Source: a virus
Length of the DNA stretch: 64,000 nt
Virus record (IMG/VR): IMGVR_UViG_3300043436_002883
Location: 45,283 to 109,282 of that record
Strand: one strand, 5' to 3'
Shown: positions 4,483 through 21,414 of the stretch, piece after piece
Position numbering within the stretch: the stretch's first letter is position 1
Layout of the letters: every line of letters begins with the position of its first letter
Program-made: the position numbers and the translations under genes
Notes under the pieces: model-generated
Told to the model about the DNA's origin: nothing
Databases searched by the model: none
What the model saw: only the letters and a program-made list of their open reading frames with translations

Positions 4483-4830
4483 ATGGCAGGGCAAAAGAAT
4501 TTCGAAGTGGATCAAAATGCCACATTTTCATTTATTGTTGAATACAAAGACGATAATGGGCTACCTATTGACCTAACAGGCTCAACAGCAAAAATGCAGG
4601 TAAGAGATACAAAAGGTGGAACTAAATTAGCTTTTAGTTTAACTTCACCATCAGGCGGAATCACAATAACCCCACTACTTGGCAAGTTAACTATTAAAAT
4701 GACTCCAACACAAACCAATAAACTATTCTATCCAAAATCATCATATGACATTATGCTGACAGATTCAAACGCAAATAAAATTAAATTGCTAGAGGGCTTT
4801 ATGACACTTAGCAGATCGGTGACAATATAA
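4483..4830 (+). CDS. virion protein (beta-rich, BppU-N-like)
   Basis: PIDLTGSTAKMQVR...YDIMLTD pattern typical of phage baseplate/fibre adaptor domains; AGGAG RBS. Confidence 0.6.
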   Translation: MAGQKNFEVDQNATFSFIVEYKDDNGLPIDLTGSTAKMQVRDTKGGTKLAFSLTSPSGGITITPLLGKLTIKMTPTQTNKLFYPKSSYDIMLTDSNANKIKLLEGFMTLSRSVTI

Positions 4831-5267
4831 TGGTAGAGACAATTGTTGTAACAGTTCCAAGCAACGAAGTTGTAGTTTCTACTCCTGGCCCCCAAGGCCC
4901 AAGAGGAAAAAGCATACTTAATGGAGTAGGTGCTCCTGCAGAAAATTTTGGTCTTGAAGGAGATTTTTACTATGATAAAAATACAACAAGATTCTATGGG
5001 CCAAAGCCAACAGATCTAACTTGGGCAGGAGCAACAAATTACCTTTTAAACATGACTTTAGAGTACTCTTGGGAACTTACACAAGTTACTGGACCAGTAT
5101 CTGGAGTATATTCTGTAGAAATTAATCATAATTTAGGCATGAAGCCAAACGTTACAATTAAATCAAGCGCAGGCGACGTTTTAGAAACAGGAATAGATTA
5201 TAATAGTAGTAACAAAATAACACTGACAATGGCTCAACCATTCTCAGGGACAGCGTACCTGTCTTAA
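4830..5267 (+). CDS. virion/fibre protein with short collagen-like motif
   Basis: PGPQGPRG; C-terminal HNLG motif shared with the next gene. Confidence 0.6.
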   Translation: MVETIVVTVPSNEVVVSTPGPQGPRGKSILNGVGAPAENFGLEGDFYYDKNTTRFYGPKPTDLTWAGATNYLLNMTLEYSWELTQVTGPVSGVYSVEINHNLGMKPNVTIKSSAGDVLETGIDYNSSNKITLTMAQPFSGTAYLS

Positions 5268-5279
5268 GGGAGTTAGCAA

Positions 5280-6701
5280 ATGGCAAGAAAATTTTTAGTT
5301 AGCGTTGATCTCAATAAGAATGAGCTTCTCAATGCCAGAATCCAAAACCTCGGAGCTGCACCATCTAGCCCAGTAACTGGACAAATTTACTATGACAGCG
5401 GCAACAATGTCATGTACTACTACAATGGATTACCTTCACCAAATGGTCCATGGATGCCAATGTCTGGCTCTACAGAAGTTATCCAAGATGTTATTGGGTC
5501 TTCAGTATTAGGTGGAAATGTTTTAACAGCGACATACGATGACACCGCTGGAACAACAACAATTGATTTAGACAATACAGCAGTAACAGCTGGATCTTAT
5601 GGTTCAACAACAGCAATTCCAACATTTACAGTAGACGCACAAGGTCGTTTAACTGCTGCAAGTACAGTAAGCGTAGCAACAGCTCTTTCAATTGCTGCAG
5701 AATCTGGAACAGCAGACACAGTAGACCTTCTAACAGATACACTAACCTTTGCCGCAGGCGAAGGAATTAATACAGATGTTACAAACAACACAATTACAAT
5801 TTCTGGAGAAGATGCCTCTACAAGCAATAAGGGTATTGCGTCATTTAATTCAGATGATTTTAATACAACAGATGGACATGTAGAGCTAGAGGATACAGTT
5901 GTTAAAACAGTTACAACAGACTCTGGAGCTCTTACTCCATCATCACACGGCCTCTCTATTCTTGGCGGAGAAGGAATTGATGTAACGCATTCTGGAACAT
6001 CAATTACAGTGGCTGGAGAAGATGCAAGTACAACTAATAAGGGTGTGGCTTCATTCTCAACAGATGACTTTACAGTAACATCTGGTGCAGTAACAATCAA
6101 GAATGTGAATCTTGCTACACAGACAACTGGAAATTATATTGCAACAATTGCTGGAACAGAAAATGAAGTTACAGTTTCAGGATCTGGAACAGAAAATTCA
6201 GCAGTAACAATTGGACTTCCAGACGATGTATCAATTACTAACAACTTAACAGTTGGCGGAAACCTAACAGTTAATGGTACAGTAACTGCGGTAAATACAG
6301 AAACAACAACATTAAATGATAATATTATTGTTTTAAATAACAATGAAACAGGTACTCCGTCCCAAAACGCAGGACTTGAAGTAGAACGTGGAACATCTGC
6401 TAATGTTTCAATAGTATGGAATGAATCTTCAGATCAATGGACACTTACAAATGATGGTACAAACTATCATGAAGTAGTACGTAAGTGGAAATCTAATATT
6501 ACTACAACCACTGAAGCCCCTTACACATTTGCGGCAGAGCATAATCTTGGAACACGTGATGTAACGGTTGCAGTTTATTCAAACTCTACTCCATATTCCG
6601 AGGTTGAGGTAGATGTTGATCATACATCAGATACTACAGTTACACTAACATTTGCAATCGCACCAACAGCTGGAGCATATAGAGTAGTAATTACAGGATA
6701 A
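5280..6701 (+). CDS. fibre-like virion protein
   Basis: Thr/Ser/Gly-rich, with an internal 70-aa duplication and [10 protein letters not shown] fibre motif. Confidence 0.7.
5690..6100 (+). repeat. tandem ~210 nt (70 aa) intragenic duplication
   Basis: GEGI...[19 protein letters not shown] versus GEGI...[19 protein letters not shown]; GEG codons at 5757 and 5967. Confidence 0.8.
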
Positions 6702-6704
6702 AGT

Positions 6705-7121
6705 ATGACAAAAAAATTCTTAACGCCTATAGCACCACCAGCGCTTACTGAAGATCCATCTGTAGGAATAACTGGAGCTATTTACTATAATAGTTTAACT
6801 GGAAAGTTAAAGATTTATTCTGGTACGGCTTGGGAAAATGTTTCTACAGGAGTTTCAGTATTATCGGGACCACCATCTAATCCAGATTTAGGGCAACTTT
6901 ATTTTGATACATCAGAAAGTACATTTAAAGGCTACAATGGACAAGTTTGGTATGACGTTGCGGGACCAAAAGAAATTTTGGAGCATACACACAACGCATC
7001 AAGTGGTATAGTAGAAGAAGTAAATTATGGAGAGTATGTTGATGACTCTAGAATTTTTGCAAGTTCAGGCAGTGCTAGTTCAAATTTTATAGGTGATTAT
7101 ATTGACGGAGGTGGTGCATAA
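6705..7121 (+). CDS. virion protein
   Basis: Two G(A/Q)(I/L)Y(Y/F)(N/D)...Y.G..W fibre-type motifs; coupled to the next gene. Confidence 0.6.
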   Translation: MTKKFLTPIAPPALTEDPSVGITGAIYYNSLTGKLKIYSGTAWENVSTGVSVLSGPPSNPDLGQLYFDTSESTFKGYNGQVWYDVAGPKEILEHTHNASSGIVEEVNYGEYVDDSRIFASSGSASSNFIGDYIDGGGA

Positions 7122-10100
7122 TGGCAATTAGAATTCAATTACGCAGAGACACAGCAGCAAATTGGACTTCAGCAAATCCTGTTTTAAGAGCAGGAGAATT
7201 TGGTGTTGAAACAGATACACTTAAGGTAAAGGTAGGTAATGGCACCAGTACATGGACACAAATATCTAGCTACCTAAATATTACACCCGCACAACTAGCA
7301 ACAACAGTTACAGCAGTAAATGCTTATACAGATGCAGCAGTAGCATCTTTAGGAAATACTGCATCAACCACTTATGTTCCTCTTTCAGATGTTGGAAATA
7401 TAGATGGCGTTGCCTCACTTGATGCCACTGGTAAAATCCCAGATTCACAAATTCCAGCAGGAATAACTAGAGACACAGAGCTATCTTCTGCTATTTCAAC
7501 AGCAATTAATAATCTTATTGATGGTGCGCCAGGCGCATTAGACACACTTAACGAGCTTGCAGCAGCAATTAATGACGATGCATCATATGCATCAACTATA
7601 ACAACAGCCCTTGGTTTAAAAGCACCACTGGCCTCACCAGCACTTACTGGAACACCTACTGCACCAACAGCAGCGGCAGACACAAGTACAACTCAAATTG
7701 CAACCACAGCTTTTGCTAAATCCGAAGCAGATGCAGCACAAGCAGCCGCAATCTCTGAAGCAGCAACAGATGCTACAACAAAAGCAAACGCAGCAAAGTC
7801 TGGCGCAGAAGCAACAGCAGCATCTGCACTTTCTTTGCACGAATCAGATACAACAAATATACATGGTATTGCAGATACAGCAGAACTGGCAACCAAAGCA
7901 TTTGCAGCAGAGCTGCTTACAAATGCTACAAAGTCTAATATATCAATTACAGGAGATAAAAACGGACTTACTATTAATGCTGAAAATGGAGTGGCGGACT
8001 CTACAACAGACGCCTTAGCTGAAGGTGGTACAAATAAATACTTTACAGATGATAGAGCACAGGATGCTGTAGCAACCGCTTTAGCAGCTGGTACACATAC
8101 AAATATTTCAGTATCTTATGATGATGTAGCAAATTCAATTTCTTTAACTGGAGCGGTAACATATACAGATGAAAATGCTCAAGATGCAATAGGAAATGCA
8201 GTTGGAACAGGCCTTTCTTATAACGATACAACTGGAGCAATTTCTGTAGACCCTTCAGAATTTGCACTAAATACAGTCGGTGCACCAACTGGCAACGTAT
8301 CTCTTGCTACCTATAAAATCACAAGCCTTGGAACACCAACTGATTCAACAGATGCTGCTACAAAGGCTTACGTTGACTCAGTAACAGAAGGTCTTCATAT
8401 TCACGAGTCCGTAATTGCAGCAACAACTACAAATGTTAATCTCGCAAATGCTCTTGAAAACGGTGACACTCTTGACGGAGTAACCCTTGCAACTGGCAAC
8501 CGAATTCTTGTTAAAAATCAGACAACTACATCTGAAAACGGTATTTACGTAGTTCAGGCTTCAGGACAACCAGTACGTGCAGCCGATTTTGATACAGCAG
8601 CAGAAGTTGATTCTGGTGATTTTGTATTCGTATATTCAGGAACAGCAAATGCTAGCACTGGATGGGTACAAACAAATAAACCAGCAACAATTGGAACGGA
8701 CCCAATAGTATTTACACAGTTCTCAGGTGCTGGTACATATCTTGCGGGTAATGGATTAAGCCTTAATGGAAATACATTTAGTATTAATACAGGAACAACT
8801 GTAGATTTAAATACAGCTCAAACTCTTTCAAACAAAACACTGACATCTCCAGTTATAAATGGTGCAACAATTGGTGGAAGCTTAATTCCATCAGCAAATG
8901 CCTCATATGACCTTGGATCTGCAGCTAACAAGTTTAAAGATCTATATTTGTCTGGAACAACACTTTACCTAGATACAGCATCTATGCAGTTGGATTCTGG
9001 AAATATTCAATTTAGTCATAGCGGAAATACAACAACAATTCCAGTTGCAAATGGTGCACATACAGTAACAACTCGTGCTGGTATTGAAACTTTAACAAAT
9101 AAAACTTTAACTGCTCCAGTTATTAATAATCCAACTGGAATCACAAAATCTGATGTAGGTCTTGCAAATGTTGATAATACTTCAGATGCAAATAAGCCAG
9201 TTTCAACTGCTACACAAACAGCACTTGACCTTAAGGCACCACTTGCGTCACCAGCACTTAGTGGTGTACCAACTGCCCCAACAGCAGCAGCCAACACAAA
9301 TACAACTCAAATTGCAACAACTGCTTACGTGCAAACAGAGATTGCTGACTTGATTGCAGCTGCTCCTGGAGCACTAGATACTCTTGATGAGTTGGCAGCA
9401 GCTCTTGGTGATGACGCAAACTATGCAGCTACAATAACAACAGCACTTGGTACCAAGGCTCCAATAGCATCACCTACATTTACAGGGACAGTAGTACTTC
9501 CAAATAATACAATTACCAACGCAATGTTAGCTGGATCAATTGAAAACAACAAGCTTGTAAATTCCTCTATTACAATTAATGGGAACGCAGTATCTTTGGG
9601 TGGAACGGTTACGCTGGCCACTTCTGCAGCAACTGAAAATACTCTTGGAACTGTATACGGAAAGGTAACAACATCTGGTGTTGACAACACATCACTAGGA
9701 AGCCTAACTTTACAGAATATAGAAACTGGAACTGAAAATACAGCACTCGGAAATGAATCTTTAAGATCATTAACAGAAGGAAGCAGAAACGCAGTGCTAG
9801 GATTCCAGGCTGGTACTTTAATAACAAGTGGAATAGGAAACGTCCTATTAGGAACTAGCGCAGGAAGCAATTTGGTCGGCGGAAGTAATAACATTATTAT
9901 CGGTGATGTTGTACAGTCCACTACAAGTAATACCAGCAACGAAATTATTATTGGAAATAATGCAAGCAACGCATTTAAAATTCCAGGAATAGGTCTTTCA
10001 GCATCAGTAGCTAACTATATTATAACAGCAACAGATACACAAAATTTAACCAATAAAACAATAACAGCACCAACAATTAGCAACCCTAACTTTACTGGGC

Positions 10101-10525
10101 CAATATCTGTTGCAGACCCAGTATCTGCAAGTCACGCAGTAAATAAAGCTTACCTTGAAGCAGAAATTGCCGATTCGGTAGGAAGCGATATATATCCTTT
10201 AGACTCATTGTCTCAATTGTTTGATGGATATACTTCAAGATTTAAGCTAAAATTTGATGGAGTAGATTTTATTCCATCAAACCCATATAAGCTTTTTATA
10301 ACAATTAATGGTATAATTCAAATATTGGGAAACCAAGATCAGCACTGGCTCAGCGCATTGCCGTCCGAGGGGTACTTTTTAGATAATGATGGATATATTC
10401 AGTTCGGGGAACCAATTCCAGCTGGGTCATCATTTGAGGCAAAGTATATCTCAGGACCAAATACGCAAACAGTTAAAAAATCTAGATATCCGTTCAGAGC
10501 AACAGATATATTATTAGGAGATTAA
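7121..10525 (+). CDS. large fibre protein (Mtd-N-like N-terminus)
   Basis: MAIRIQLRRDTAANWTSANPVL..GE.GVETDT.KVKVG.G N-terminus; two copies of APGALDTLxELAAA and KAPLASPAL.G.PTAPT tail-fibre repeats. Confidence 0.8.
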   Translation: MAIRIQLRRDTAANWTSANPVLRAGEFGVETDTLKVKVGNGTSTWTQISSYLNITPAQLATTVTAVNAYTDAAVASLGNTASTTYVPLSDVGNIDGVASLDATGKIPDSQIPAGITRDTELSSAISTAINNLIDGAPGALDTLNELAAAINDDASYASTITTALGLKAPLASPALTGTPTAPTAAADTSTTQIATTAFAKSEADAAQAAAISEAATDATTKANAAKSGAEATAASALSLHESDTTNIHGIADTAELATKAFAAELLTNATKSNISITGDKNGLTINAENGVADSTTDALAEGGTNKYFTDDRAQDAVATALAAGTHTNISVSYDDVANSISLTGAVTYTDENAQDAIGNAVGTGLSYNDTTGAISVDPSEFALNTVGAPTGNVSLATYKITSLGTPTDSTDAATKAYVDSVTEGLHIHESVIAATTTNVNLANALENGDTLDGVTLATGNRILVKNQTTTSENGIYVVQASGQPVRAADFDTAAEVDSGDFVFVYSGTANASTGWVQTNKPATIGTDPIVFTQFSGAGTYLAGNGLSLNGNTFSINTGTTVDLNTAQTLSNKTLTSPVINGATIGGSLIPSANASYDLGSAANKFKDLYLSGTTLYLDTASMQLDSGNIQFSHSGNTTTIPVANGAHTVTTRAGIETLTNKTLTAPVINNPTGITKSDVGLANVDNTSDANKPVSTATQTALDLKAPLASPALSGVPTAPTAAANTNTTQIATTAYVQTEIADLIAAAPGALDTLDELAAALGDDANYAATITTALGTKAPIASPTFTGTVVLPNNTITNAMLAGSIENNKLVNSSITINGNAVSLGGTVTLATSAATENTLGTVYGKVTTSGVDNTSLGSLTLQNIETGTENTALGNESLRSLTEGSRNAVLGFQAGTLITSGIGNVLLGTSAGSNLVGGSNNIIIGDVVQSTTSNTSNEIIIGNNASNAFKIPGIGLSASVANYIITATDTQNLTNKTITAPTISNPNFTGPISVADPVSASHAVNKAYLEAEIADSVGSDIYPLDSLSQLFDGYTSRFKLKFDGVDFIPSNPYKLFITINGIIQILGNQDQHWLSALPSEGYFLDNDGYIQFGEPIPAGSSFEAKYISGPNTQTVKKSRYPFRATDILLGD

Positions 10526-10529
10526 GAAA

Positions 10530-13500
10530 ATGGCAAGAAAAGTATTACTAGAAACGTCTTATACGTTTACCCCATCAACAAGAACTATTTCGATTCCAAA
10601 AACAATCTTGAAAGAAAGATTGCTTTTGATCACGAACGTAACAACAAATCAGGTTATTTATAATTTTTCAGATCCAAGCTTGGGTTCAACATCATACTCA
10701 GCTACTACAAACTCTGCGATGGTAGAAAATACAACAATTGTTCTATCATATAACACTGCATCTATGACATCAACAGATAAACTTATGTTTACAATTGATA
10801 CATTTGATGAAAGCTTTACTCCAGCAGAGTCACAGCTAGACCCAGCTAACAAGTTTAGAGTTTCACAACCAAGAGCTCTTATCGACACTGATTTTGAATA
10901 CGGAACACAGACTTCTAAGTGGGAAAACCTAGGATTAATTAACAATAGACCATTTTCTTATGCAAGACCAACACCTATTGCTAATATCTCTTCTATTAAT
11001 CTCCCAACAGGCTCAAAAACAGTAACAGTTACACTCAGCTCTGGAACAGCTCCAGCAAACGGAACTCCAGTTACAATCCAAGATTCATTTTTGGCAATTG
11101 CAGATGGTAACTTTATTATCGAAAACGGCGGTGGAGGATCTAGCTTCACATATACAGCCTCTGCTATTAACAGAACAAGCATTACAGAAATCCTTGATCC
11201 AAACAAGACAATAGTTAATCAGGGAGTTCTTTTTAGCGGTGCTCAAATTGGCGGAAGTGCATCATTAACTTATTCAGGAAGAAAGATTACAGCAGTAACA
11301 TCAGTTCCTCACGGACTTGCCCTAGGAAATGAAATTGTTGTACTTGGAGCTACAGCAACAACTAATCCTCCAAATGGCAATCAAGAAGTTGCTCAGATAA
11401 TTAACACAACAACATTTGCATTCTATGTAGATGCAGCACCAACAGGAACAATTGCTGGTGGAATTGCAATTTTTGTAAGACCACAGTCTACATTTGCACA
11501 TAGACCACATGATGGTGGTGTTTTGTTTAGTGCTAACTCAGGCTCTAACTATGCACAATGCGTTCGTCAAACACGTCGCTACTTTAGATATCAATCAGGT
11601 AAGGGAATTCAGATTTCTTCAGGAACAGTTCTAAAGCCTTACGCAGGAATTGAAAATATAACATCAAATAACACAGTAGCAGTAACAGTTCAAACAAAAG
11701 AAAAGCACAATCTACAACCAGGAACAGTTATTAAAATTGGTGGATGTAATGAAGTTGCATACAATGGAACATTTACAATTACGAATGTATTAAGTGCTAC
11801 AGCTTTCCAATATCAAGCACTATCAATTCCTTCAGCCACAGTTGCAACAGGACCATTCTACGCATCAGTAGAATCTTGGTATGGTTGCCAAAATAGACTA
11901 GGTGCTTTTGATGAGCAGAATGGTTTGTTCTGGGAGTACGACGGAACTACACTTTATGCAGTTCGCAGAAGCTCAACTTTCCAGCTATCTGGTAAGGTAA
12001 CAGTTTCACAAAACTCTGCAACAATTCTACAATCTAGCGCAGAATTCCCAACATATTTCTCTAAGCAGCTAATCCCAGGAGATAAGATTGTAATCAGAGG
12101 ACAATCATATAAGGTTGTTTCAATTGCATCAGATACATCTCTAACAATTAGCCCAGCATACCGTGGAGCAAGTGCTTCAATGTGTATTGTTTCTAGAACA
12201 GATGATACAAAAATTGCTCAAAGCGATTTTAATCTAGATAAGATTGACGGTACAGGGCCTTCTCAGTACAACATTGATCTTGGAAAGATGCAAATGTTCT
12301 ACATCGACTATACATGGTATGGTGCAGGATTCGTAAGATGGGGAGTTAGAGGGCCAAAGGGTAACGTTATTTACGTACACAAGATGCCTAATAACAACGT
12401 TAATACAGAAGCCTACATGCGCTCTGGTAACCTTCCAGGTAGATATGAAAGCTCAACAAATCCACCTTACACAAAGGCAACTACAGAAATTTTAACAACA
12501 GATGCAGCGCTAACAGTTGCTTCTACAGCTGGATTCCCACCTTCAGGAACACTAGTTATAAGAAACGAAAATACTTATGAGTATGTTAACTACACAGGAA
12601 AGTCAGCAACAACATTTACTGGACTTACAAGAGGAAAAGCTGGTGTAGAAGCAGGACTAACTGTTACTATAGCAACTGGAACAAGCACTGGAACAGTAGC
12701 AAGCGCAACTGGAATTCAGGTAGGACAAAGAGTTATATCTAATGCCTTCCCTGAAGGAACATTTATTTCTTCAATTACTGGTACATCAGTTCAGTTTAGC
12801 AAAGCAGCTTTAACAGATAACCCTACTGGAGTAATTATTGCTCCAATGGGAGCCACATCCGCTCAAGCCTTTACATTTGCAGCAACTTCACCAACAATGG
12901 TTGAGTTAGCATTCCCATCATTCTCAGCATCCATATCACACTGGGGAACATCGGTAATCATGGACGGTAACTTTGATGAAGATAAGTCTCTCGTGTTTAC
13001 ATACGGACAGAGAACTGGAAACTCTATTCCAGCAGGACAATCAAGAGCACTATTTGCAATCCGTGTAGCACCTTCAGTAGATAATGGTATTGCTGCAGCA
13101 TTCGGACAAAGAGAACTAATTAACCGTATGCAGCTTACACTTAAAGCACTAGATGTTACAACGTCTCTAGCTAACGCTAACCTTCTTGTAACTGCAGTTC
13201 TAAATGGAGTTCCATCAACAACAAATGCATGGACTAATGCGGTAGGAAACGTAGCAGGAGTAGCAAACTCATCACTAGCACAGATTGTAGATTATCAAGG
13301 TAGCTCAACCACTTTATCTGGTGGAGAAACTACTGCAGGTTTCTTCGTAGGAACTGGAGCTAACTCAATCGATCTGTCAAACGTTAGAGATCTTGGAAAC
13401 TCAATTGTGGGTGGAGGATCAGTAAACTCAAATACAAACATCTACCCAGATGGTCCAGACACACTAACAATTGTTGTTGCAAATCTTGGTTCAACAACAG

Positions 13501-13544
13501 CTCCAGTGTTCGCAAGACTATCCTGGACTGAGGCACAGGCATAG
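10530..13544 (+). CDS. large virion structural protein
   Basis: 1004 aa, Thr/Ser-rich beta content, within the fibre block; AGGAG RBS. Confidence 0.6.
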   Translation: MARKVLLETSYTFTPSTRTISIPKTILKERLLLITNVTTNQVIYNFSDPSLGSTSYSATTNSAMVENTTIVLSYNTASMTSTDKLMFTIDTFDESFTPAESQLDPANKFRVSQPRALIDTDFEYGTQTSKWENLGLINNRPFSYARPTPIANISSINLPTGSKTVTVTLSSGTAPANGTPVTIQDSFLAIADGNFIIENGGGGSSFTYTASAINRTSITEILDPNKTIVNQGVLFSGAQIGGSASLTYSGRKITAVTSVPHGLALGNEIVVLGATATTNPPNGNQEVAQIINTTTFAFYVDAAPTGTIAGGIAIFVRPQSTFAHRPHDGGVLFSANSGSNYAQCVRQTRRYFRYQSGKGIQISSGTVLKPYAGIENITSNNTVAVTVQTKEKHNLQPGTVIKIGGCNEVAYNGTFTITNVLSATAFQYQALSIPSATVATGPFYASVESWYGCQNRLGAFDEQNGLFWEYDGTTLYAVRRSSTFQLSGKVTVSQNSATILQSSAEFPTYFSKQLIPGDKIVIRGQSYKVVSIASDTSLTISPAYRGASASMCIVSRTDDTKIAQSDFNLDKIDGTGPSQYNIDLGKMQMFYIDYTWYGAGFVRWGVRGPKGNVIYVHKMPNNNVNTEAYMRSGNLPGRYESSTNPPYTKATTEILTTDAALTVASTAGFPPSGTLVIRNENTYEYVNYTGKSATTFTGLTRGKAGVEAGLTVTIATGTSTGTVASATGIQVGQRVISNAFPEGTFISSITGTSVQFSKAALTDNPTGVIIAPMGATSAQAFTFAATSPTMVELAFPSFSASISHWGTSVIMDGNFDEDKSLVFTYGQRTGNSIPAGQSRALFAIRVAPSVDNGIAAAFGQRELINRMQLTLKALDVTTSLANANLLVTAVLNGVPSTTNAWTNAVGNVAGVANSSLAQIVDYQGSSTTLSGGETTAGFFVGTGANSIDLSNVRDLGNSIVGGGSVNSNTNIYPDGPDTLTIVVANLGSTTAPVFARLSWTEAQA

Positions 13545-13556
13545 GAAAACATAACA

Positions 13557-14057
13557 ATGTCTATTACTAAAGGAAAGTTTCCCTACGAAACAGATTTGCA
13601 GGTTAAATCATTATCAGTTTCTGATAACTGCGGTCTTTCTGGAATAACAACATTTTCTGGAGTAGTAAAGTTAAGTGGAACACTTGACAGCACATTGGGT
13701 AATATTCAGTTTATAGATGGGGTACAGTCAAAACAAGGTACCCCGTCTATAACACCTATATATACTAAATTTTTTAATTACACATTAAGTAATTTAAATG
13801 AAAGAGATTCCATTATCGATATGAGAATGACTGTTGCAAATACAGTAACCATTCCAGCAGATACGGTTATCAATTTCCCAGTTGGTACTACTCTTGATAT
13901 TTTACAAACAGGAGCAGGACAAACTACGGTTCAAGCAGGACCTGGTGTAGTATTAAACTTTACTCCAGGACAAAAGTTAAGATTTCAATGGTCAATTGCA
14001 ACAATATTAAAAAGAGATGCCAACACTTGGCTTTTGTTCGGAGACTTGACAGCGTAA
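13557..14057 (+). CDS. virion/fibre-associated protein
   Basis: TVTIP...FPVGT...QTGAGQTT...W.LFGDL C-terminal domain common in phage fibres. Confidence 0.6.
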   Translation: MSITKGKFPYETDLQVKSLSVSDNCGLSGITTFSGVVKLSGTLDSTLGNIQFIDGVQSKQGTPSITPIYTKFFNYTLSNLNERDSIIDMRMTVANTVTIPADTVINFPVGTTLDILQTGAGQTTVQAGPGVVLNFTPGQKLRFQWSIATILKRDANTWLLFGDLTA

Positions 14058-14073: not shown

Positions 14074-15738
14074 ATGGGTAAAAAGACGGGTAGAAAAGCG
14101 CAACTTTCTGGAGATTTTGAATATCCAGTACCACCAATAAATGTAGTTGCAACAGATGTAGGAACAAATAGACCATATAACAATGGGGCTATAAATATTA
14201 CTTTTGAATACCCAACAGGCCAATTGCCTATTATAAATTACACTGCAAAGTTTACTCCTAATACTGGATCAGTAACTTATACAGATTTTTCTGCAACATC
14301 CCCAATTTTAATTACTGGAATACCTTCAGGACTAACTGGCTTTGTAACAGTAAATGCAACAAATGTAAATGGAACTTCTCAGGAGTCTACCGCAACCGCC
14401 CCTCTTTTAGTTACAACAGTTCCACAATCACCAAGAACAGTTACAGCAGTATCTAACACTACAGGTCCAGGCCATAGCACAGAAGGTACACAAACCACTA
14501 CACCAGGACAACGTGGACAAGATATTGTTTCATGGGGGCACCCAGCAACTGGTGGAAAAGATATATCAAAATATATAATTACATCTTCAGATTTAACTAC
14601 ACAGCCAGGCGGACTAGCATCACCATATGAAGCTAATTTCCCAGCAACATCTATAGCAATTAGAGAGACTATGGCAAGTGCCCAGATATATACAGTAAAA
14701 GCAGTAAACGCAAATGGAACTTCTTTAGGTTCTGCAACTGGTGAAGTTACAACATTCTTTTCACCACCAGCTTTTTTCTCCCCACCAAACTTCTTTGCGC
14801 CACCTAACTTTTTTGCGCCACCTAACTTTTTTGCGCCACCTAACTTTTTTGCTCCACCAAACTTCTTTGTGCCGCCAAACTTCTTTGCGCCACCACAATT
14901 CTTTGCGCCACCAAACTTCTTCGTGCCGCCACAGTTCTTTGCGCCACCACAGTTCTTTGTGCCACCACTATTTTTTACACCACCAAACTTCTTTACACCT
15001 CCACTATTCTTTAGCCCTCCAAGATTCTTTTCACCTCCAGGGTTCTTTAGCCCTCCAAGATTCTTTTCACCTCCAAGATTTTTTGCACCTCCAGGATTCT
15101 TTGGCCCTCCAAGATTCTTTGGCCCTCCAGGATTCTGTATACCAGCAGATACGGAGGTGCTTACTAAGGACGGATACAAAAAAGCAAAAGATATAAAGAT
15201 AGATGATATTCTTTTAACCGCTTATTTTGATAATTTGCCAGAACATTCTTCTAACTGTGCACAAGGATACATAAGCACAGACTGCATGATTCAAGTTGCT
15301 TCATGGAGAGATTCTAATTTAATTAATCAAAAAACATTAGAGTCAAAGGTTACAAATATATTCAAGGAAACAAAATCATCAGTTGTAAGAATTAATAACA
15401 ATCCTAAATATGATTTGTCATTAGTAGAACAACCTGTGATAAAAAGAGGCAATGAATATATGCTTCCAGAAGCAGCTAACCTAGAAATTGGCGATGAAAT
15501 ATTTAATTACGATAACCCTTCTGATCCAATAGTTGTTGAGTCCTTGGATCTTGTAGAAAAAGATACAGACGTATTTTTATTCTACAGAGAACCGTGGGGA
15601 CTTCTTGTGGCAGGATCAATGCTTGCATATAATGGATGCGAAACTTACAGCGAGATAGATCCAAATGATGTGGACCCTCATATTGCTGAAAATCCACACA
15701 ATGAAGAAGAGTCGGACGCAGAATTTCAGGATAACTAA
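14074..15738 (+). CDS. Fn3-like x2 + (FFxPPx)21 + Hint domain + acidic tail protein
   Basis: Fn3-type motifs (PP.NVVA, VTV.ATN.NGTS, VSW..PATGG..I..Y, YTVKAVNANGTS); repeat array; Hint block A CIPADTEVLTKDGYKKAKDIKIDD and C-terminal LLVAGSMLAYN. Confidence 0.8.
   Translation: MGKKTGRKAQLSGDFEYPVPPINVVATDVGTNRPYNNGAINITFEYPTGQLPIINYTAKFTPNTGSVTYTDFSATSPILITGIPSGLTGFVTVNATNVNGTSQESTATAPLLVTTVPQSPRTVTAVSNTTGPGHSTEGTQTTTPGQRGQDIVSWGHPATGGKDISKYIITSSDLTTQPGGLASPYEANFPATSIAIRETMASAQIYTVKAVNANGTSLGSATGEVTTFFSPPAFFSPPNFFAPPNFFAPPNFFAPPNFFAPPNFFVPPNFFAPPQFFAPPNFFVPPQFFAPPQFFVPPLFFTPPNFFTPPLFFSPPRFFSPPGFFSPPRFFSPPRFFAPPGFFGPPRFFGPPGFCIPADTEVLTKDGYKKAKDIKIDDILLTAYFDNLPEHSSNCAQGYISTDCMIQVASWRDSNLINQKTLESKVTNIFKETKSSVVRINNNPKYDLSLVEQPVIKRGNEYMLPEAANLEIGDEIFNYDNPSDPIVVESLDLVEKDTDVFLFYREPWGLLVAGSMLAYNGCETYSEIDPNDVDPHIAENPHNEEESDAEFQDN
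14755..15132 (+). repeat. 21 x 18-nt coding tandem repeat (FFxPPx)
   Basis: Counted directly: TTY TTY NNN CCN CCN NNN x21 with invariant FF and PP. Confidence 0.97.
15136..15633 (+). other. Hint (intein-like/hedgehog-like) autoprocessing domain, no endonuclease
   Basis: Cys1 at 15136; block A; LEIGDEI; block F/G DVFLFYREPWGLLVAGSMLAYN ending Asn at 15631-15633. Confidence 0.75.
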
Positions 15739-15741
15739 TCC

Positions 15742-15770
15742 TTGACTATATTACGCAAAAATGCTATTCT
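15742..15770 (+). promoter_or_regulatory. sigma70-type promoter for the oxygenase cluster, probably leaderless
   Basis: TTGACT-17 nt-TATTCT with TGn; ATG begins 7 nt after the -10 and has no SD. Confidence 0.65.
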
Positions 15771-15776
15771 TTAATA

Positions 15777-16400
15777 ATGATATACAACAAAAAACAGTTG
15801 TACCCTGGGATATGGGTATATCCTAATTCTTTTCCAAAAGAACTTGATTTAATTAATCGTATTGAAGATTGCGTATCCAGCAAAGAAACTGACTGGAATA
15901 GTGCAACTGTTTGTTTAGAAGAGACAGATAAAACATACAGGGATGCATGGGACTTTAAGATCTCTGCTCTTGGAAAATCTCACCCACTTTACAAAGATAT
16001 TTATAATTGCCAAAAAGATGCAGTTGAAGATTTTTGCAATATGTATTCAATTAAAATGGATTTTTGGGAATGGACTAATGTAGTTAAATATTACCCTAAT
16101 CAATTTTTTCAAGAGCATGCAGATGACGGGTGGTCATATAAATGTGCCGTATCTTTAGTCGGATATCCAAATGATGGTTATACTGGCGGTGGGCTATATT
16201 TTCCTAAATTTAATTTACATATAACACCAGAGATAGGGGATTTAGTTATATTTCCTTCCTCTTTTATATATTCTCACGTAGCTCTTCCAGTTGAGTCAGG
16301 AGTCAAGTATTCTTTTGTTACCATGCTAGACTACAATGATGATGCCCATACCGAAGAATATGATAGAATGATAGATAACAAACACAAGGGGAAAAAATAA
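15777..16400 (+). CDS. 2OG-Fe(II) oxygenase, prolyl-4-hydroxylase-like (1)
   Basis: HAD...YPNDGYTGGGLYF...GDLVIFPS...YSH...KY. Confidence 0.88.
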   Translation: MIYNKKQLYPGIWVYPNSFPKELDLINRIEDCVSSKETDWNSATVCLEETDKTYRDAWDFKISALGKSHPLYKDIYNCQKDAVEDFCNMYSIKMDFWEWTNVVKYYPNQFFQEHADDGWSYKCAVSLVGYPNDGYTGGGLYFPKFNLHITPEIGDLVIFPSSFIYSHVALPVESGVKYSFVTMLDYNDDAHTEEYDRMIDNKHKGKK

Positions 16401-16401
16401 T

Positions 16402-17142
16402 ATGCTTCCAAATGCAGAAACTATATATCCAGGAATTATTGTATACAGAGACGTCTTTAAAAAAGAGTACAATCTGGCAGAAAGACTAGAAAAGGTTTTA
16501 GAAAAACAAGAAAGCAAGAAGCACTGGAACCTGGCTCAAACAGGCTTTGATACACTAAATACAGATTATCGTGATGCCTGGGATTTTAAAATTAAAGAAA
16601 ATGACGGCGGATCCCTAATGTATGGCAATGGAAATCATGTTCAGCAAGAAGATCTTACAGAGGATGAAATAGAGCTAAGACAGATATGGAGAGACTCAAA
16701 AGGAGTACAGCTTAACGCTGTAGCAGATTACATGAAAATGTTTCAGCTTCCACCCTTAAACTATTGGGAATCTTTTAACTTTATTAAGTATGCAAAAAAT
16801 CAACACTTTAATGTCCATTCAGATCACGGATATTCATATGTGTGTGTGCTTTCATCAGTAGGTTATATTAACGACGACTACGAAGGCGGAGAGTTGTTTT
16901 TCGATAAGCTTGGCTTAAAGATTAAACCTAAAGCTGGAGATCTATATCTTTTTCCTTCTTCTTATATTTATTCTCATGCAGCAATGCCAGTAAAATCTGG
17001 AACTAAATATGCAATTGTTACAATGTTAGATTATCAAGAGGCTCCACACACACCTCTTTATAGAGAAATAGAGGCAGGCTATGAATATAACCATTTTACC
17101 GAAGGTAAAAAATTTATCCCAGCAGAACAAAGGGATAATTAA
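16402..17142 (+). CDS. 2OG-Fe(II) oxygenase, P4H-like (2)
   Basis: HSD...YINDDYEGGELFF...YSH...KY; clear paralog of the preceding gene. Confidence 0.88.
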   Translation: MLPNAETIYPGIIVYRDVFKKEYNLAERLEKVLEKQESKKHWNLAQTGFDTLNTDYRDAWDFKIKENDGGSLMYGNGNHVQQEDLTEDEIELRQIWRDSKGVQLNAVADYMKMFQLPPLNYWESFNFIKYAKNQHFNVHSDHGYSYVCVLSSVGYINDDYEGGELFFDKLGLKIKPKAGDLYLFPSSYIYSHAAMPVKSGTKYAIVTMLDYQEAPHTPLYREIEAGYEYNHFTEGKKFIPAEQRDN

Positions 17143-17856
17143 TTGATTAAGGTAACAGCATATGATAATTTGCAAGATACAGCTAACATAGAGCCACTCT
17201 CTGCAAAAAGAGATTGGATGGACCAGACGGAGCATAATCATGCATACAGGTGCTTTCCACTAACTCTAGCAAATCAATTAGGCTGGGGAATATCTTTTCC
17301 AGAAGATATAACTTTTATGTGGGATGGAGTAACAAGTACCTATCCACATAATGTTCAGGTTTTACAAGGACAAAAATACTGCGAAACTGGTAGAGGTCAC
17401 TCAACAATTAATTTTAAAACAAATCTAACTTTTGAAACAGAAAGTAATTACACATTGCTATCTTTCCCAGTTCCAAATATGTTTGTTGATGGAGCCCAGG
17501 CCGTAACAAGCTTACTAACAACATCTTTTTTTGGTAGCCCATTGCCAGTTGCATGGAAGATTACAAAGCCATACGTTCCAATCACAATCAAAGCTGGACA
17601 ACCAGTAATTGCAATTTTGCCAATATCTTTAACAGAGCTAAACAACTCTACTCTTGAAGTAAAGGATATAAGGCATATGCCACAGCCACACTTTGAGAAT
17701 GTTCCAACTTATGAAGGAGCAGTTGCTGCAGCTAAAGAGGCGGCAGAAAAACAAATTTGGACAGACTACTATAGAGATGCCACAGACTATCTAGGAAATA
17801 AACTAGGATCTCATGAAGTAAAATCAATTAAGCTGAAAGTCAATAAATACAAATGA
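17143..17856 (+). CDS. DUF6065-like protein
   Basis: RDWMD...AYRCFPLTLANQLGWGI...WDG motif as recalled for DUF6065; TTG start abuts the upstream stop. Confidence 0.7.
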   Translation: MIKVTAYDNLQDTANIEPLSAKRDWMDQTEHNHAYRCFPLTLANQLGWGISFPEDITFMWDGVTSTYPHNVQVLQGQKYCETGRGHSTINFKTNLTFETESNYTLLSFPVPNMFVDGAQAVTSLLTTSFFGSPLPVAWKITKPYVPITIKAGQPVIAILPISLTELNNSTLEVKDIRHMPQPHFENVPTYEGAVAAAKEAAEKQIWTDYYRDATDYLGNKLGSHEVKSIKLKVNKYK

Positions 17857-18563
17857 AAATTGTTTTTAATTCAAATAGACACTATAACAATAAAGATCTT
17901 GTTCCAAGCCCTACAAAAAATGTTATGCCAGGATGGTTTAAGAATGCTAGCAAGTACTGGAAAGATTTTGAAGGAAATGATGTAGTCGGTCCTCCAGACA
18001 ATCAAAGAGGCCCAGGCTTTAAAGCCTGTCCAGCCTTACATGATATTTTTACGACAGGATATATGCTTACAACACCATGCGACATTAATGTTTTTATAAA
18101 AGACGGATACACATTAGTGCAAGCAGAGCCAGGATTTGATGACTTTGTTTCAATTCGTTCGCACATGGGAGAATTTCATTATCCAGAAGGATATTATAAA
18201 TTTGTTTATCACTGGTATCCAAATTGGGGATTTACCCTTCCAGAAGGGTATAGCGCTTTAGTTGTACAGCCTATTAATAATTTTGAGCTGCCTTTTTTAA
18301 CGGTAGGCGGTATAATTGATAGTGATAGGTATGCCCCGCCAGGGCTAATGCCATTTTTTATTAGAGATGGCTTTAAAGGAATTATTCCAAAAGGAACTCC
18401 CTATGCACAAATAATTCCAATCAAAAGAGAAGAATGGAAATCAGAGTTTAATTTGTATACGTATCAAGAAATGCAAAAAAGACACAATGACCATGTGGCC
18501 ATATATAGAGCAAATACTGGAGTATATAAAAAAAATACCTGGGTACCCAAGAAATATGAATAG
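17853..18563 (+). CDS. DUF6065-related phage protein (possibly dUTPase-like fold)
   Basis: P.WFK, KACP...D...TGY....PCD, PEGYS, GIIDSD, IPKGTP..QIIP.KRE.W motifs; this family is often near phage 2OG oxygenases. Confidence 0.6.
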   Translation: MKIVFNSNRHYNNKDLVPSPTKNVMPGWFKNASKYWKDFEGNDVVGPPDNQRGPGFKACPALHDIFTTGYMLTTPCDINVFIKDGYTLVQAEPGFDDFVSIRSHMGEFHYPEGYYKFVYHWYPNWGFTLPEGYSALVVQPINNFELPFLTVGGIIDSDRYAPPGLMPFFIRDGFKGIIPKGTPYAQIIPIKREEWKSEFNLYTYQEMQKRHNDHVAIYRANTGVYKKNTWVPKKYE

Positions 18564-18572
18564 GAAAAATAA

Positions 18573-19256
18573 ATGGAAAACACTGTAGAGAACCCTTCGG
18601 ATATTAGAAAGCACAGAACATCAATCACGCCTTCTGGTTATTTTGGCAATGGTAAAGAAAACATTGTTGAAATAGAGAACTTGTTAACGGAAGAAGAAAA
18701 CGAATACCTTTTAAATTTTATTAAAAATAATGAAGTTTGGGATCAGGGCCAAGATGTTAAAAATGAGAATGGAACAATCATCTATCAACACAACGTATGG
18801 GCAAACCGTGTTGCAACAAGAAAATCTTTAGATGAGTCAGATCCAGCTGTTTCAGTAATGCTAGAGTCAATAATTGAAAGACTAAGAGTAATGATTGAAA
18901 AGCATTTTAATGTAGAGGTAAAGCCTACAGGCCCATGCCTTGTTAGATGGCCAGTTGGCTCTATGCAGTGGCCACACGCAGATAAAGAATTGCACGAAGG
19001 ACCAGATAAGGGAACTGCAAACAATTTTCCATGGTATGACATTGGGACAGTAATCTATTTAAATGAAGATTACGAAGGTGGTAGATTGCATTTTCCAAAA
19101 CAAGAAATTGCTTTTAAGCCAAAAGCTAGAGCGGCATATTTTTTTCCAGGTGATTTAAACTATATACATGGTGTCGATATTATTACAGAAGGAACAAGAT
19201 ACACCTCACCTTGGTTTTGGACTATAACTAAATTAGGAGAAAAAATAAATGGATAA
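18573..19256 (+). CDS. 2OG-Fe(II) oxygenase, P4H-like (3)
   Basis: HAD...YLNEDYEGGRLHF...YIHGV...RY. Confidence 0.88.
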   Translation: MENTVENPSDIRKHRTSITPSGYFGNGKENIVEIENLLTEEENEYLLNFIKNNEVWDQGQDVKNENGTIIYQHNVWANRVATRKSLDESDPAVSVMLESIIERLRVMIEKHFNVEVKPTGPCLVRWPVGSMQWPHADKELHEGPDKGTANNFPWYDIGTVIYLNEDYEGGRLHFPKQEIAFKPKARAAYFFPGDLNYIHGVDIITEGTRYTSPWFWTITKLGEKING

Positions 19257-20109
19257 TATAGTATCAAAGACCCTGTATCCCAGAATTGAAATTTACAAAG
19301 GTTTACTTCCAGATCATAAGGAAATTTTTGATGTTGTAAAGTCTACAGAAAACATTGAAAAAGATTCAGATGAACATTATTTTGTTCCGTGGACTAGATG
19401 GAGCTCCTTTGGCACATACTCATCAACAAAATTTAAGGGTGCTATGGATAACCTACGTGGCAAAAATGAAACTTTTGACAAAGAGTATTGGGCTGCAGAA
19501 ACAGTTTGGGATGCATATAATATTGCTCTTGAAGACTACATAAAGAAATATAATGTTGACCTTCCAGAAGGAGCAGAGCTCGGCTCATCATCATTTTGCA
19601 AATATTTTACTAACGTAGATTCTTTAAAGAATAATTTAACAATGCAGTATCACACAGATTTTAAACAAACAGATAAGGATGCTCCAGGAAATAAATTTTA
19701 TATAACCTGTACGGTTTATATAAATGACGACTATGAAGGCGGAGAAATTGAGTTTTATGTTAATGGAGAATTTGTTCCCGCATACAAGCCAGAGGCAGGA
19801 GACATAATGGTATTTCCTTCTGGAGAAGGATACTATCATGGCGTAAGAACGGCGACTAAAGGAAATAAATATTTAATCAGAAACTTTATGGTTTATCCAT
19901 ATAAGGGGTCTGATGAATGGCTAGAAAACCAATTAAAATACGGTGCAACAAAATGGGCTGAAATGGAAAAAAGAAGAATGAGCCTAGATGTATATGGCGG
20001 GAACCTAGTATTTGAAAATGGAAAACTAAAGGTTCCAACTGAAAAAGAAATACAAGATCATATAGATTATATCGATAGTCTAGAAGATAAAGATAAGACG
20101 GAGTGCTAA
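19249..20109 (+). CDS. 2OG-Fe(II) oxygenase, P4H-like (4)
   Basis: HTD...YINDDYEGGEIEF...YYHGV...KY. Confidence 0.88.
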   Translation: MDNIVSKTLYPRIEIYKGLLPDHKEIFDVVKSTENIEKDSDEHYFVPWTRWSSFGTYSSTKFKGAMDNLRGKNETFDKEYWAAETVWDAYNIALEDYIKKYNVDLPEGAELGSSSFCKYFTNVDSLKNNLTMQYHTDFKQTDKDAPGNKFYITCTVYINDDYEGGEIEFYVNGEFVPAYKPEAGDIMVFPSGEGYYHGVRTATKGNKYLIRNFMVYPYKGSDEWLENQLKYGATKWAEMEKRRMSLDVYGGNLVFENGKLKVPTEKEIQDHIDYIDSLEDKDKTEC

Positions 20110-20819
20110 TGGAAATTGTATCGCTTAAGGATGATGTTTTTGTTGTTGATGGTTTAATTACAGAAGAAGAATGCCAAAAAATAATTGCTTATTTTGACGC
20201 AATTACCGACGCTGGTCATTTAAAGTGGAATCAAATTTCTTTTTACGGATCTCTTGCCATGGGCTACTGGCCTTGGGACGATAACCTACTTCTATTTGGC
20301 TTGCCTAAAGATTATTTTTCTATACTAAAAGAAAAAGTTAAACTAGCAGGGGAAACCTGTTTTAACAAAGAGTTATCAGAAGTAAGTTACCACGCACAAA
20401 AGTGGGTAATAGGAGCATTTGCAGGTTTTCACTCAGATAATACCCATGAAGACGGAAAGCCTTCCGCATTCTATAAAAGTAAATATGCAGGATTCCTTTA
20501 TCTAAATGATAATTTTGATGGAGGGTTTTTAAACTTTAAACATCATGATATTGCAATAAAGCCAAAGCCTGGTAGACTTGCTTTCTTTAAAGGTGGATAT
20601 GGCAACGAGCATGAAGTCACGATGGTTGAAAAGGCAGAAAGATATACAGTGGGATCGTTTTGGGATGATGCTGATGCAGTTTATACACCAGAACAAATAG
20701 CTGAGTGGGAAGCCGAACTTAAAGAAACAAGAGCAGAACAAGAAAAAACTTACGAAGAGTGGAATGATCTTAAGAAAAGGGGAACTCCACCAACACATAA
20801 AGGTAAGTATGATGCTTAA
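20103..20819 (+). CDS. 2OG-Fe(II) oxygenase, P4H-like (5)
   Basis: HSD...YLNDNFDGGFLNF...NEHEV...RY. Confidence 0.88.
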   Translation: MLMEIVSLKDDVFVVDGLITEEECQKIIAYFDAITDAGHLKWNQISFYGSLAMGYWPWDDNLLLFGLPKDYFSILKEKVKLAGETCFNKELSEVSYHAQKWVIGAFAGFHSDNTHEDGKPSAFYKSKYAGFLYLNDNFDGGFLNFKHHDIAIKPKPGRLAFFKGGYGNEHEVTMVEKAERYTVGSFWDDADAVYTPEQIAEWEAELKETRAEQEKTYEEWNDLKKRGTPPTHKGKYDA

Positions 20820-21414
20820 AGAAATACTTACTCCAGATATACATTACTATACAGAAGTATTTGACAACCCTGAAGAGTTAATAAAAGAAATTGAATTAAT
20901 GGATCAATTTCAAGATATGGGCTCTCAGATAAGTAAATGGGAGCCATGGAATTCTTCATGCAAAACTGTTCAGTATGGTTATGAAAAAACAATCAATTAT
21001 AAAAATGTTTTAAATAATAATAATAGAGACAGGCATAACTCTAAGTTTGCCAGTATGATTCATTATAGGGCAATACAAATAGCAGAAGAGTACGCTTCGG
21101 CACATCAAATAGATTTAGGGGATCTCCCAACACATTGCAAGATATATAAATATAACAATTCTACAGAAATGGGCCCACATACTGACTGGGATCCAGACTA
21201 TAGCCCACAGCACTTGACAGGCACAGTTTCAATTGTTTTTTACTTAAACGATAATTATCAGGGTGGAGACCTGGCTTTTCCTAATGACAACCTTTCTGTT
21301 AAGCCAAAGCCTGGAAGCGCAGTCGTATTCAAGTCCCATGGAATTTTGCATGAGCCTTTGCCAACAACAGAGGGTACAAAGTATATGGTTGCAATCTTTT
21401 TCTTTAGAAAATAA
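20809..21414 (+). CDS. 2OG-Fe(II) oxygenase, P4H-like (6)
   Basis: HTD...YLNDNYQGGDLAF...LHEP...KY; start 20809/20812 is more plausible than 20764. Confidence 0.85.
   Translation: MMLKEILTPDIHYYTEVFDNPEELIKEIELMDQFQDMGSQISKWEPWNSSCKTVQYGYEKTINYKNVLNNNNRDRHNSKFASMIHYRAIQIAEEYASAHQIDLGDLPTHCKIYKYNNSTEMGPHTDWDPDYSPQHLTGTVSIVFYLNDNYQGGDLAFPNDNLSVKPKPGSAVVFKSHGILHEPLPTTEGTKYMVAIFFFRK

Follow-up and report, generated by a model that had tools for sequence, protein, structure and literature searches.

Our comparisons support the view that the gene for a phenylalanine-proline repeat protein, P0001, and the array of 2-oxoglutarate (2OG)/Fe(II) oxygenase genes directly following it form a coupled unit, and we think it fairly likely that together they make up a phage-encoded system that hydroxylates the Phe-Pro repeat stalks of virion proteins. 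The unit occupies positions 14074-21414 (+ strand) of a 64,000-nucleotide stretch of viral DNA (the window), which corresponds to bases 45283-109282 of the 109,282-bp IMG/VR record IMGVR_UViG_3300043436_002883, rated complete by CheckV. Its genes, and the domains of P0001, are as follows (Fn3, fibronectin type III; AF2, AlphaFold2; pLDDT, predicted local distance difference test).

14074..15738, + strand: P0001, 554 aa; basic N-terminus, Fn3-Fn3, (FFxPPx)21, Hint domain, acidic tail
14131..14751, + strand: two Fn3 domains of P0001, aa 20-226 (AF2, Foldseek, Pfam in homologues)
14755..15132, + strand: 21 tandem FFxPPx hexapeptides, aa 228-353 (contiguous, by regular-expression count)
15136..15633, + strand: Hint/bacterial-intein-like (BIL) domain, aa 355-520 (profile match; AF2 pLDDT ~90)
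15634..15735, + strand: acidic C-terminal tail, aa 521-554, predicted disordered
15777..16400, + strand: ox1, PF13640, paralogue of ox2 (Pfam 33.4 bits; HxD/H/K)
16402..17142, + strand: ox2, PF13640 (Pfam 46.3 bits)
17143..17856, + strand: duf1, DUF6065 (PF19541; Pfam 118 bits)
17853..18563, + strand: duf2, distant DUF6065 paralogue (phrog_7084 at 2e-36)
18573..19256, + strand: ox3, PF13640-like (Pfam 26.7 bits, cut-off 27; phrog_61 at 3.6e-14)
19249..20109, + strand: ox4, PF13640 with a C-terminal extension (above gathering score)
20103..20819, + strand: ox5, PF13640 (above gathering score)
20764..21414, + strand: ox6, PF13640 (Pfam 49.4 bits)

Relatives of P0001 number 53 in a search of 5.8 billion proteins and 507 in a scan of IMG/VR, and a second scan with the repeat only gave 179 loci. 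They share a common plan, with a basic N-terminus (MSKKAGRK.Q.SNDF-type) and two or three Fn3 domains preceding an aromatic/proline repeat. The family is phage-only: a search of 185,579 cellular genomes gave no true FFxPP member, the two hits, in Trichodesmium and Gordonia, being artefacts of reading frame or low complexity that have no oxygenase gene in their vicinity. Among cultured phages, megablast and tblastn searches found no match to the block or to P0001.

The coupling of repeat type to oxygenase array was scored in the 82 unique family proteins for which the fetched DNA extends 5 kb or more downstream, by calling open reading frames (ORFs) in the fetched loci and searching them with hidden Markov models built from the paralogues of the window; an array was defined as at least four PF13640 ORFs within 8 kb. 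A preliminary description of this DNA, made from the sequence alone, had suggested that phage genomes be searched for just this pairing, and it was found: when the repeat is of the FF(x)PP type an array lies downstream in 61 of 62 genes, the sole exception having three PF13640 ORFs in 5 kb of sequence, whereas proteins with single-Pro aromatic repeats (FSPFGVFG, FGFTPFG, FTPYSF) have one in 0 of 18 cases. The FF(x)PP arrays always include at least one DUF6065 gene, and their first ORF mostly begins 4-80 nt past the stop codon of the repeat gene. Over the ~150 related phage loci as a whole, the array is seen only beside an FFxPP-type repeat.

This coupling also has support that does not depend on any tree, because the module that physically lies between repeat and array has been exchanged many times without their becoming unpaired; its forms include Hint domains with Cys or Ser at position 1, short tails such as FGSRFIRAY or FWD, and Cys-rich knots. 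The repeat-array association does not require a Hint domain; many array-bearing loci have another C-terminal module in its place.

Shared descent and true co-switching were compared in a tree of portal proteins, to which portals from further records had been added; loci with no portal in the fetched DNA, near-identical rows and L071, in which the portal is truncated, were left out. In this extended tree the label FFxPP-plus-array requires three changes, two of them forced by well-supported branches. Loci L079 and L080, which have FFPP-type repeats with six oxygenase and two DUF6065 genes, are nested in an otherwise array-less clade. Conversely L074, which lacks a PF13640 array and has FGFTPFG repeats together with DUF6065 and XY-family genes (described below), groups as sister (Shimodaira-Hasegawa-like approximate likelihood ratio support 97) with L032/L033, which bear arrays and have portals 90% identical to its own. 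In every independent pair, two on supported branches and three in all, the array tracks the repeat type, three pairs being too few for significance in a sign test. An approximately unbiased test rejects a single FFxPP clade (Δ lnL 427, p 2.8e-5), the group having been named after the tree was seen. A tree of the N-terminal Fn3 region, with 205 usable columns, suggests five switches; as so few columns could be used, we have relied on the portal tree instead.

The eight genes 3' of P0001 are encoded on the same strand and are separated by gaps of 38, 1, 0 or 9 nt or overlap by 4-8 nt. As first described, they follow the repeat gene with no intervening gene (the first gap being that of 38 nt), and six of them encode oxygenases of the PF13640 (2OG-FeII_Oxy_3) family with intact active sites; in 6/6 there is an HxD motif, a distal His and a Lys or Arg ∼10 residues after that His. 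The gathering cut-off of the family, 27 bits, is reached by five of the six (33-49 bits), and the catalytic residues are invariant in 30 ox1/ox2 orthologues. The best match of ox2 in the PDB is the prolyl 4-hydroxylase (P4H) of B. anthracis (E 2e-5), as is that of ox6 (E 6.7e-6), followed among solved structures by PKHD-type hydroxylases and the collagen lysyl hydroxylase LH3. It is from the similarity to the B. anthracis enzyme that we infer peptidyl-proline hydroxylation by the array. A predicted complex of ox2 (30-row alignment) with repeat residues 234-275 scored 0.01, which speaks neither for nor against binding. For ox6 the true start is probably at 20809, and not 20764, because of Met16/Met17 and the orthologue length of 197-200 aa.

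The six paralogues are well separated from one another. Orthologues of ox1 occupy the first array position in related loci, and those of ox3, among the best-kept groups, are present in nearly all full arrays at 50-92% identity, with best-match scores of 220-420 bits against ∼60 for the second-best paralogue. For ox3-ox5 as a set the best match is likewise far above the second-best, and the orthologue groups stand in conserved order. Because orthologues of the window paralogues persist at the same array positions even where the repeat proteins are only 30-60% identical, the duplications must be old, with each copy maintained, which argues for distinct roles. The preliminary description had supposed a set of divergent, possibly position-specific enzymes; the divergence stands, as ancient orthologue groups in a fixed order, and fits non-redundant roles.

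The layout of P0001 was borne out in every detail, by the ORF, the repeat count, the AF2 model and the profiles. In the model, built with 23 relatives, the tandem Fn3 domains have pLDDT >90 over aa 20-226 and match FN5-FN6 of NEO1 in Foldseek (E 3.7e-12); the precomputed annotation PF00041 is present in homologues, and Pfam itself misses P0001. The repeat segment is unstructured in the monomer model (pLDDT <50). Its invariant residues are F1, F2, P4 and P5, with a small residue at x3 (A/S/V/T/G) and a variable one at x6 (N/Q/L/R/G), and although its codons vary synonymously, FF and PP never change. Phe354 and Cys355 follow directly on the last unit. A collagen-like class was considered and dropped, there being no Gly at every third residue; the period is 6, with Gly occasional at x3/x6. 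Two long ORFs in other frames over the repeat, 14379-15179 (-, 266 aa) and 14741-15196 (+, 151 aa), were rejected as genes, being by-products of the 18-nt repeat periodicity.

Comparison between loci narrows the choice of target. The x6 residue is mostly N/Q/R in the clade of the window, L in L008-L011 and G in L022-L030, and both x3 and x6 vary freely (N, G, L, R, Q) between loci that share one enzyme set. Conserved targets, if they lie within the repeat, would have to be the invariant Phe or Pro residues. Of the residues first proposed as sites of hydroxylation, Pro and Phe thus remain candidates, whereas Asn and Arg are excluded as conserved targets because the residues at positions 3 and 6 differ between loci with one and the same set of enzymes.

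The FFxPP run is not confined to proteins of the P0001 plan. It also forms the C-terminal end of other large proteins with different N-terminal parts, among them those of L118 (839 aa), L135 (788 aa), L131 (614 aa, with a Hint domain) and L121; L135 lies on the same contig as L117, 77 kb away, and has its own adjacent oxygenase. Carriers of the repeat are 266-919 aa long and have folded domains. Such reuse is consistent with the repeat being a distal stalk of virion appendages, and speaks against a small peptide that is set free.

For P0001 or its Hint part, Pfam, PHROGs and a single-sequence PDB search gave no match to the domain, and a family profile was needed. Built from 32 members, this profile has its best match in the solved BIL domain 2LWY (E 6.8e-8), with mini-inteins next (∼1e-6), and Pfam Intein_splicing is matched by 13 of the 32, P0001 not being one of them. 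In P0001 the domain begins with Cys355 (Cys1), has Ser-Leu-Val-Glu in block B, and ends in Tyr-Asn followed by Gly, with no +1 nucleophile. Across the family, position 1 is Cys in 28 and Ser in 4 members, the block B Ser/Thr is kept in all 32, the position usually occupied by His is Glu in 18, His in 9 and Gln in 5, and the last residue is Asn in 26; the residue after this Asn is mostly G, K, A or L, and the protein mostly ends 1-8 residues further on. The acidic tail of P0001 is limited to the close clade of the window, most relatives stopping 1-8 residues past the Hint domain. A splicing intein was considered and rejected, as the +1 residue is in most members not Cys, Ser or Thr and the C-extein is mostly 1-8 residues; the layout predicts instead a cleaving, non-splicing Hint or BIL domain. 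In relatives lacking the domain just a few residues follow the final repeat, as would be expected of a Hint-processed protein, and from this we infer that the Hint domain is a removable C-terminal module, with cleavage predicted.

Other C-terminal modules differ in kind. Cys-rich tails, such as CSANYCWNCPCYPCAC or CSFNCPYGTYCDNGKCIG, come after FFPPFFPFFP-type or FFxPP repeats in L071, L075, L079, L080, L114/L115 and L118, a composition that hints at small disulfide or metal knots serving as alternative tips. The idea that the SSIRFKKDI-type tails of some relatives might be intramolecular chaperone domains (Peptidase_S74) was dropped, these tails being just ∼10-20 residues long before the gene ends.

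Identification of the two remaining genes of the block required a correction. The two DUF6065-like genes originally noted are indeed there, duf1 as a clear member and duf2 as a distant paralogue that has no Pfam match and is tied to duf1 through the shared phrog_7084 and a joint profile, but they had been placed among the tailoring enzymes, and the fold of duf1 does not agree with oxygenases. Its AF2 model (pLDDT 89) is a dUTPase-like β-barrel matching trimeric dUTPases. In VIA-align the top 13 matches (Z 10.4-8.1) are all dUTPases or proteins of dUTPase fold, one of them human cytomegalovirus pp71, with unrelated folds at 5.2 or less, and Foldseek also matches the dUTPase fold (E 4.6e-4); a profile search of the PDB with DUF6065 returned no dUTPase and no match at all. 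On this model the DUF6065 proteins are of dUTPase-like fold, and not oxygenases. Nor do we class them as dUTPases: of the five dUTPase motifs the only stretch resembling one is GIIDSD, kept in the duf2 group and absent from the duf1 group, which we take to be similar to motif III. They may serve as partner, chaperone or scaffold, or provide a second chemistry, and no mention of DUF6065 was found in the literature searched. The closest cultured-virus homologues of duf2 are those of haloarchaeal tailed viruses, in which they occur as single copies between the tail/baseplate module and ribonucleotide reductase (RNR); in Halorubrum phage HF2 (L156, NC_003345.2: 48119-49003) the lone duf2-like gene has no oxygenases nearby.

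The 18 array-less loci show what stands behind single-Pro repeats. Their repeat genes lie in the same genomic place, followed in turn by RNR and portal genes. In 15 of them two or three paralogues of a different family, XY, directly follow the repeat gene, and in the other three (FTPYSF type) a lone DUF6065 gene does so. XY proteins are ∼215 aa long, with invariant WHDH, FHGYY, E.GHPH and RITIAYD motifs, and have more than 1,200 homologues and no Pfam domain; examples are at L041:11322-11981 and 12215-12607, and at L074:14721-15368 and 16201-16848. Their neighbours in the ESM Atlas are clusters of PF13759 (2OG-FeII_Oxy_5), and of ten distant relatives found in an exhaustive profile search, four match PF13759 at 21-25 bits, below the cut-off of 27. 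One of these relatives, P0272 (369 aa), is a natural fusion that joins a PF13640 domain to an XY/PF13759-like domain and so links the two enzyme families that accompany the two main repeat types. Because of these neighbours, sub-threshold matches and the fusion, XY is probably another double-stranded β-helix oxygenase family, an assignment that we offer as a lead. A PDB profile search with the XY family gave no match, Pfam on 29 members gave noise alone, an NCBIfam search gave just far sub-threshold PKHD-type hydroxylase matches, and hhalign found no similarity of XY to the ox1/ox2 profile or of the two L041 genes to DUF6065. In L074 (11360-18718) an FGFTPFG repeat gene is followed by about eleven tightly packed genes for proteins of 190-290 aa, which include two DUF6065-like, two XY and two PF13640-like genes and several of no recognisable family; this cluster is a second, different array.

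The block was first described as lying among virion fibre genes; fibre-like genes are found upstream of it, and LamG, portal and protease genes downstream. In genomic order the region reads as follows.

5' of the repeat locus: glycosyltransferase, then RNR, then a fibre-like cluster at 4483-14057
13557..14057, + strand: small conserved gene directly 5' of the repeat gene, 166 aa
14074-21414, + strand: repeat gene and enzyme block
3' of the block: LamG protein, portal, protease, capsid-type protein, adaptor
Further 3': 2289-aa gene at the tape-measure position (placed by position alone), minor tail proteins, replication genes

The C-terminal part of the 166-aa product resembles the C-termini of tail-fibre and minor-tail proteins (phrog_18179, phrog_8780, phrog_16053), and 65 of 80 related loci have a homologue of this gene ahead of their repeat gene. 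Within the fibre-like cluster a 1134-aa protein (7121-10525, +) has an N-terminal Pfam Mtd_N domain (major tropism determinant N-terminal domain; 60 bits). The gene packing suggests that the enzyme block is an operon; a promoter and terminator scan of the block gave signals no higher than shuffled expectation. The source is most likely an uncultured, siphovirus-type phage of low-GC freshwater actinobacteria, because the record encodes a WhiB regulator (17605-17778 in G000:C1), its capsid protease is ∼44% identical to Streptomyces phage proteases, and its GC content is 35-43%. Outside the window the same phage encodes an 865-aa protein (G000:C1:12325-14919, +) with ∼19 tandem EEPPA units and an N-terminal hydrophobic signal- or anchor-like segment, 1.6 kb from a separate PF13640 gene (G000:C1:16495-16767, -); this protein may be a second candidate hydroxylase substrate.

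A scheme that would accommodate these features is the following. P0001 would be displayed on the virion surface through its conserved N-terminal anchor, with the two Fn3 domains carrying a distal FFxPPx stalk. In the infected cell the co-transcribed set of five or six long-diverged P4H-type 2OG/Fe(II) dioxygenases would hydroxylate invariant residues of the repeat, most likely its two prolines, the enzymes differing in position or regiochemistry, and possibly the phenylalanines in addition. The outcome would be a hydroxyproline-rich stalk that is more soluble and stiffer, of polyproline-II type. The two DUF6065 proteins could act as obligate non-oxygenase partners, and an N-S acyl shift at Phe354-Cys355, followed by cleavage of the thioester, would yield a mature protein with the final repeat as its C-terminus. 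A bolder form of the scheme can be drawn, which as a joint proposition we hold to be improbable. Each FFxPPx unit might receive several distinct hydroxylations, for example 3- and 4-hydroxyproline on both prolines together with hydroxylation of the Phe side chain, so that the virion would carry an appendage of a new hydroxylated aromatic-proline biopolymer, able to adhere or to be cross-linked. The thioester of the Hint domain, instead of simply being hydrolysed, might ligate the stalk C-terminus to another nucleophile, on a virion protein or a host envelope component, and the FFxPP, FSPFG and FTPYSF repeats, with PF13640 array, XY and DUF6065 respectively, might represent a modular code of repeat and tailoring set for the surface fibres of phages.

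Several considerations weigh against hydroxylation of the stalk as the function of the unit. The case for it is one of computational comparison, and PF13640 enzymes act on non-protein substrates too. The weakest point is shared descent: in the first 49 portal-bearing loci FFxPP and non-FFxPP types formed two deep clades, for which one change suffices, and since the independent contrasts are few (two or three) the perfect contingency is largely phylogenetically correlated; adjacent genes can, moreover, travel as a cassette with no functional link. Two extra PF13640 genes of this genome have no FFxPP gene beside them, and the same holds for the PF13640 genes of cyanophages. RNR and glycosyltransferase genes, which are non-structural, share the region 5' of the portal gene, so location alone is no proof of a virion role, and the dUTPase-like fold of DUF6065 could point to nucleotide chemistry. 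In block B of the P0001 Hint domain Glu replaces the usual His, which makes its competence for cleavage uncertain.

Some of these points would be explained if the array were an auxiliary-metabolism or nucleic-acid/small-molecule cluster that merely adjoins the repeat gene, the correlation arising from descent and cassette transfer, an account that we consider unlikely but the most serious of the alternatives. It would align the array with the tandem dioxygenase arrays of cyanophage Syn9, which have no known protein substrate and were ascribed to secondary metabolism (PMC2938197), and it could draw on the few contrasts just mentioned, on the fold of DUF6065, and on the fact that both the haloarchaeal homologue and the lone DUF6065 gene of L053 adjoin RNR. 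It does not readily account for a pairing that survives repeated replacement of the C-terminal module lying physically between its two members, nor for each repeat type having its own enzyme-like set at the same position, and the nearest solved relatives of the enzymes are peptidyl-prolyl hydroxylases and not AlkB or TET/JBP. There is a smaller chance that the enzymes are protein hydroxylases whose main substrates are other virion or host proteins, such as translation factors, with the repeat protein a neighbour or minor substrate. Bacterial P4H-type enzymes hydroxylate EF-Tu or ribosomal proteins, and the EEPPA protein near a separate PF13640 gene provides another Pro-rich candidate; against this, it is with the FF(x)PP repeat type itself that the array goes, and host targets would leave unexplained the absence of the array from FSPFG-type phages of the same gene order, L074 with its closely similar portal among them.

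The preliminary description had also raised the possibility of a product like the ribosomally synthesised and post-translationally modified peptides (RiPPs), in which the repeat would be a modified precursor, freed as a peptide by Hint cleavage and a second cut. A tight block of repeat "precursor" and tailoring-type enzymes, with a self-cleaving-type domain at the repeat C-terminus, is what such a pathway would look like, yet we regard it as highly improbable. The repeat always lies behind folded Fn3 or other large virion-type domains, forming the end of proteins of 300-900 aa; many family members have no Hint domain; Pfam and PHROG searches of the block revealed no protease, exporter or recognition-element gene; and the repeat gene has fibre-like, portal and capsid genes around it. 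We conclude that hydroxylation of a virion stalk is the reading to be preferred, at the strength given at the outset.

Phage genomes, especially aquatic ones, are rich in 2OG-Fe(II) oxygenase genes, often in tandem arrays of a kind first pointed out in 2010 (PMC2938197) and still in want of substrates. The present locus offers a first candidate protein substrate for such arrays, in a setting where the repeat is predictive of whether enzyme genes adjoin it and of which type they are; a literature search found no paper linking a phage oxygenase array to a repeat protein. If the proposed function is correct, it would mean that bacteriophage virion proteins undergo extensive post-translational hydroxylation, establish a new repeat polymer, offer clues to the function of the large uncharacterised families DUF6065 and XY, and add a structural-protein role to those of phage Hint domains. 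The proteins concerned are small and look soluble.

Comparison with known systems places these features in context. The B. anthracis P4H acts on Pro-rich repeat peptides. With this enzyme (PDB 3ITQ, 5HV0) ox2 and ox6 share the PF13640 core, the HxD...H triad and the basic 2OG-binding residue, although the similarity covers just ∼80-90 residues of the catalytic core, and where B. anthracis has a single enzyme the phage loci carry five to nine diverged paralogues. Unlike the substrates of collagen-type P4Hs, the phage repeat has no Gly-X-Y periodicity. Viral precedents are the prolyl 4-hydroxylase of Paramecium bursaria Chlorella virus-1, which acts on (PAPK)n-type repeats, and Mimivirus L230, a collagen lysyl hydroxylase; in each case the virus encodes its own 2OG oxygenase along with Pro-rich or collagen-like repeat proteins as its putative substrates. 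Both are giant viruses of eukaryotes and have one enzyme each, in contrast to the ordered multi-enzyme array, Phe-Pro hexapeptide, DUF6065 partners and Hint domain of the bacteriophage described here.

Short Pro/aromatic repeats that are heavily hydroxylated into extended, adhesive or cross-linkable polymers are known from plant extensins and mussel foot protein-1, with which the phage protein has no sequence relationship; the enzymes are different, the phage modification is predicted, and the parallel is one of analogy only. The Hint domain resembles those of BIL and Hedgehog type in its Cys/Ser1, its terminal Asn, the lack of a +1 nucleophile and its place at the C-terminal end of a surface-type protein; it differs from them in that 23 of 32 members have Glu or Gln in place of the block B His, and in following an aromatic-proline repeat in a structural-type protein. 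Sets of several non-identical phage 2OG-Fe(II) dioxygenases are shared with the Syn9 cyanomyovirus arrays. Iyer et al. 2010 (PMC2938197) described up to ten tandem dioxygenases in Syn9, called them unprecedented and proposed a role in the synthesis of secondary metabolites; the same authors predicted that bacterial β-hydroxylases modify co-encoded collagen-like or tail-collar proteins. Cyanophage enzymes are the closest cultured-phage relatives of ox2, but they are <30% identical to it and adjoin recombination (UvsX-type) genes. The system described here extends the known theme of a P4H paired with a Pro-rich structural repeat, and is unusual in the size and order of its enzyme set, in the matching of enzyme families to repeat type and in its Hint module.

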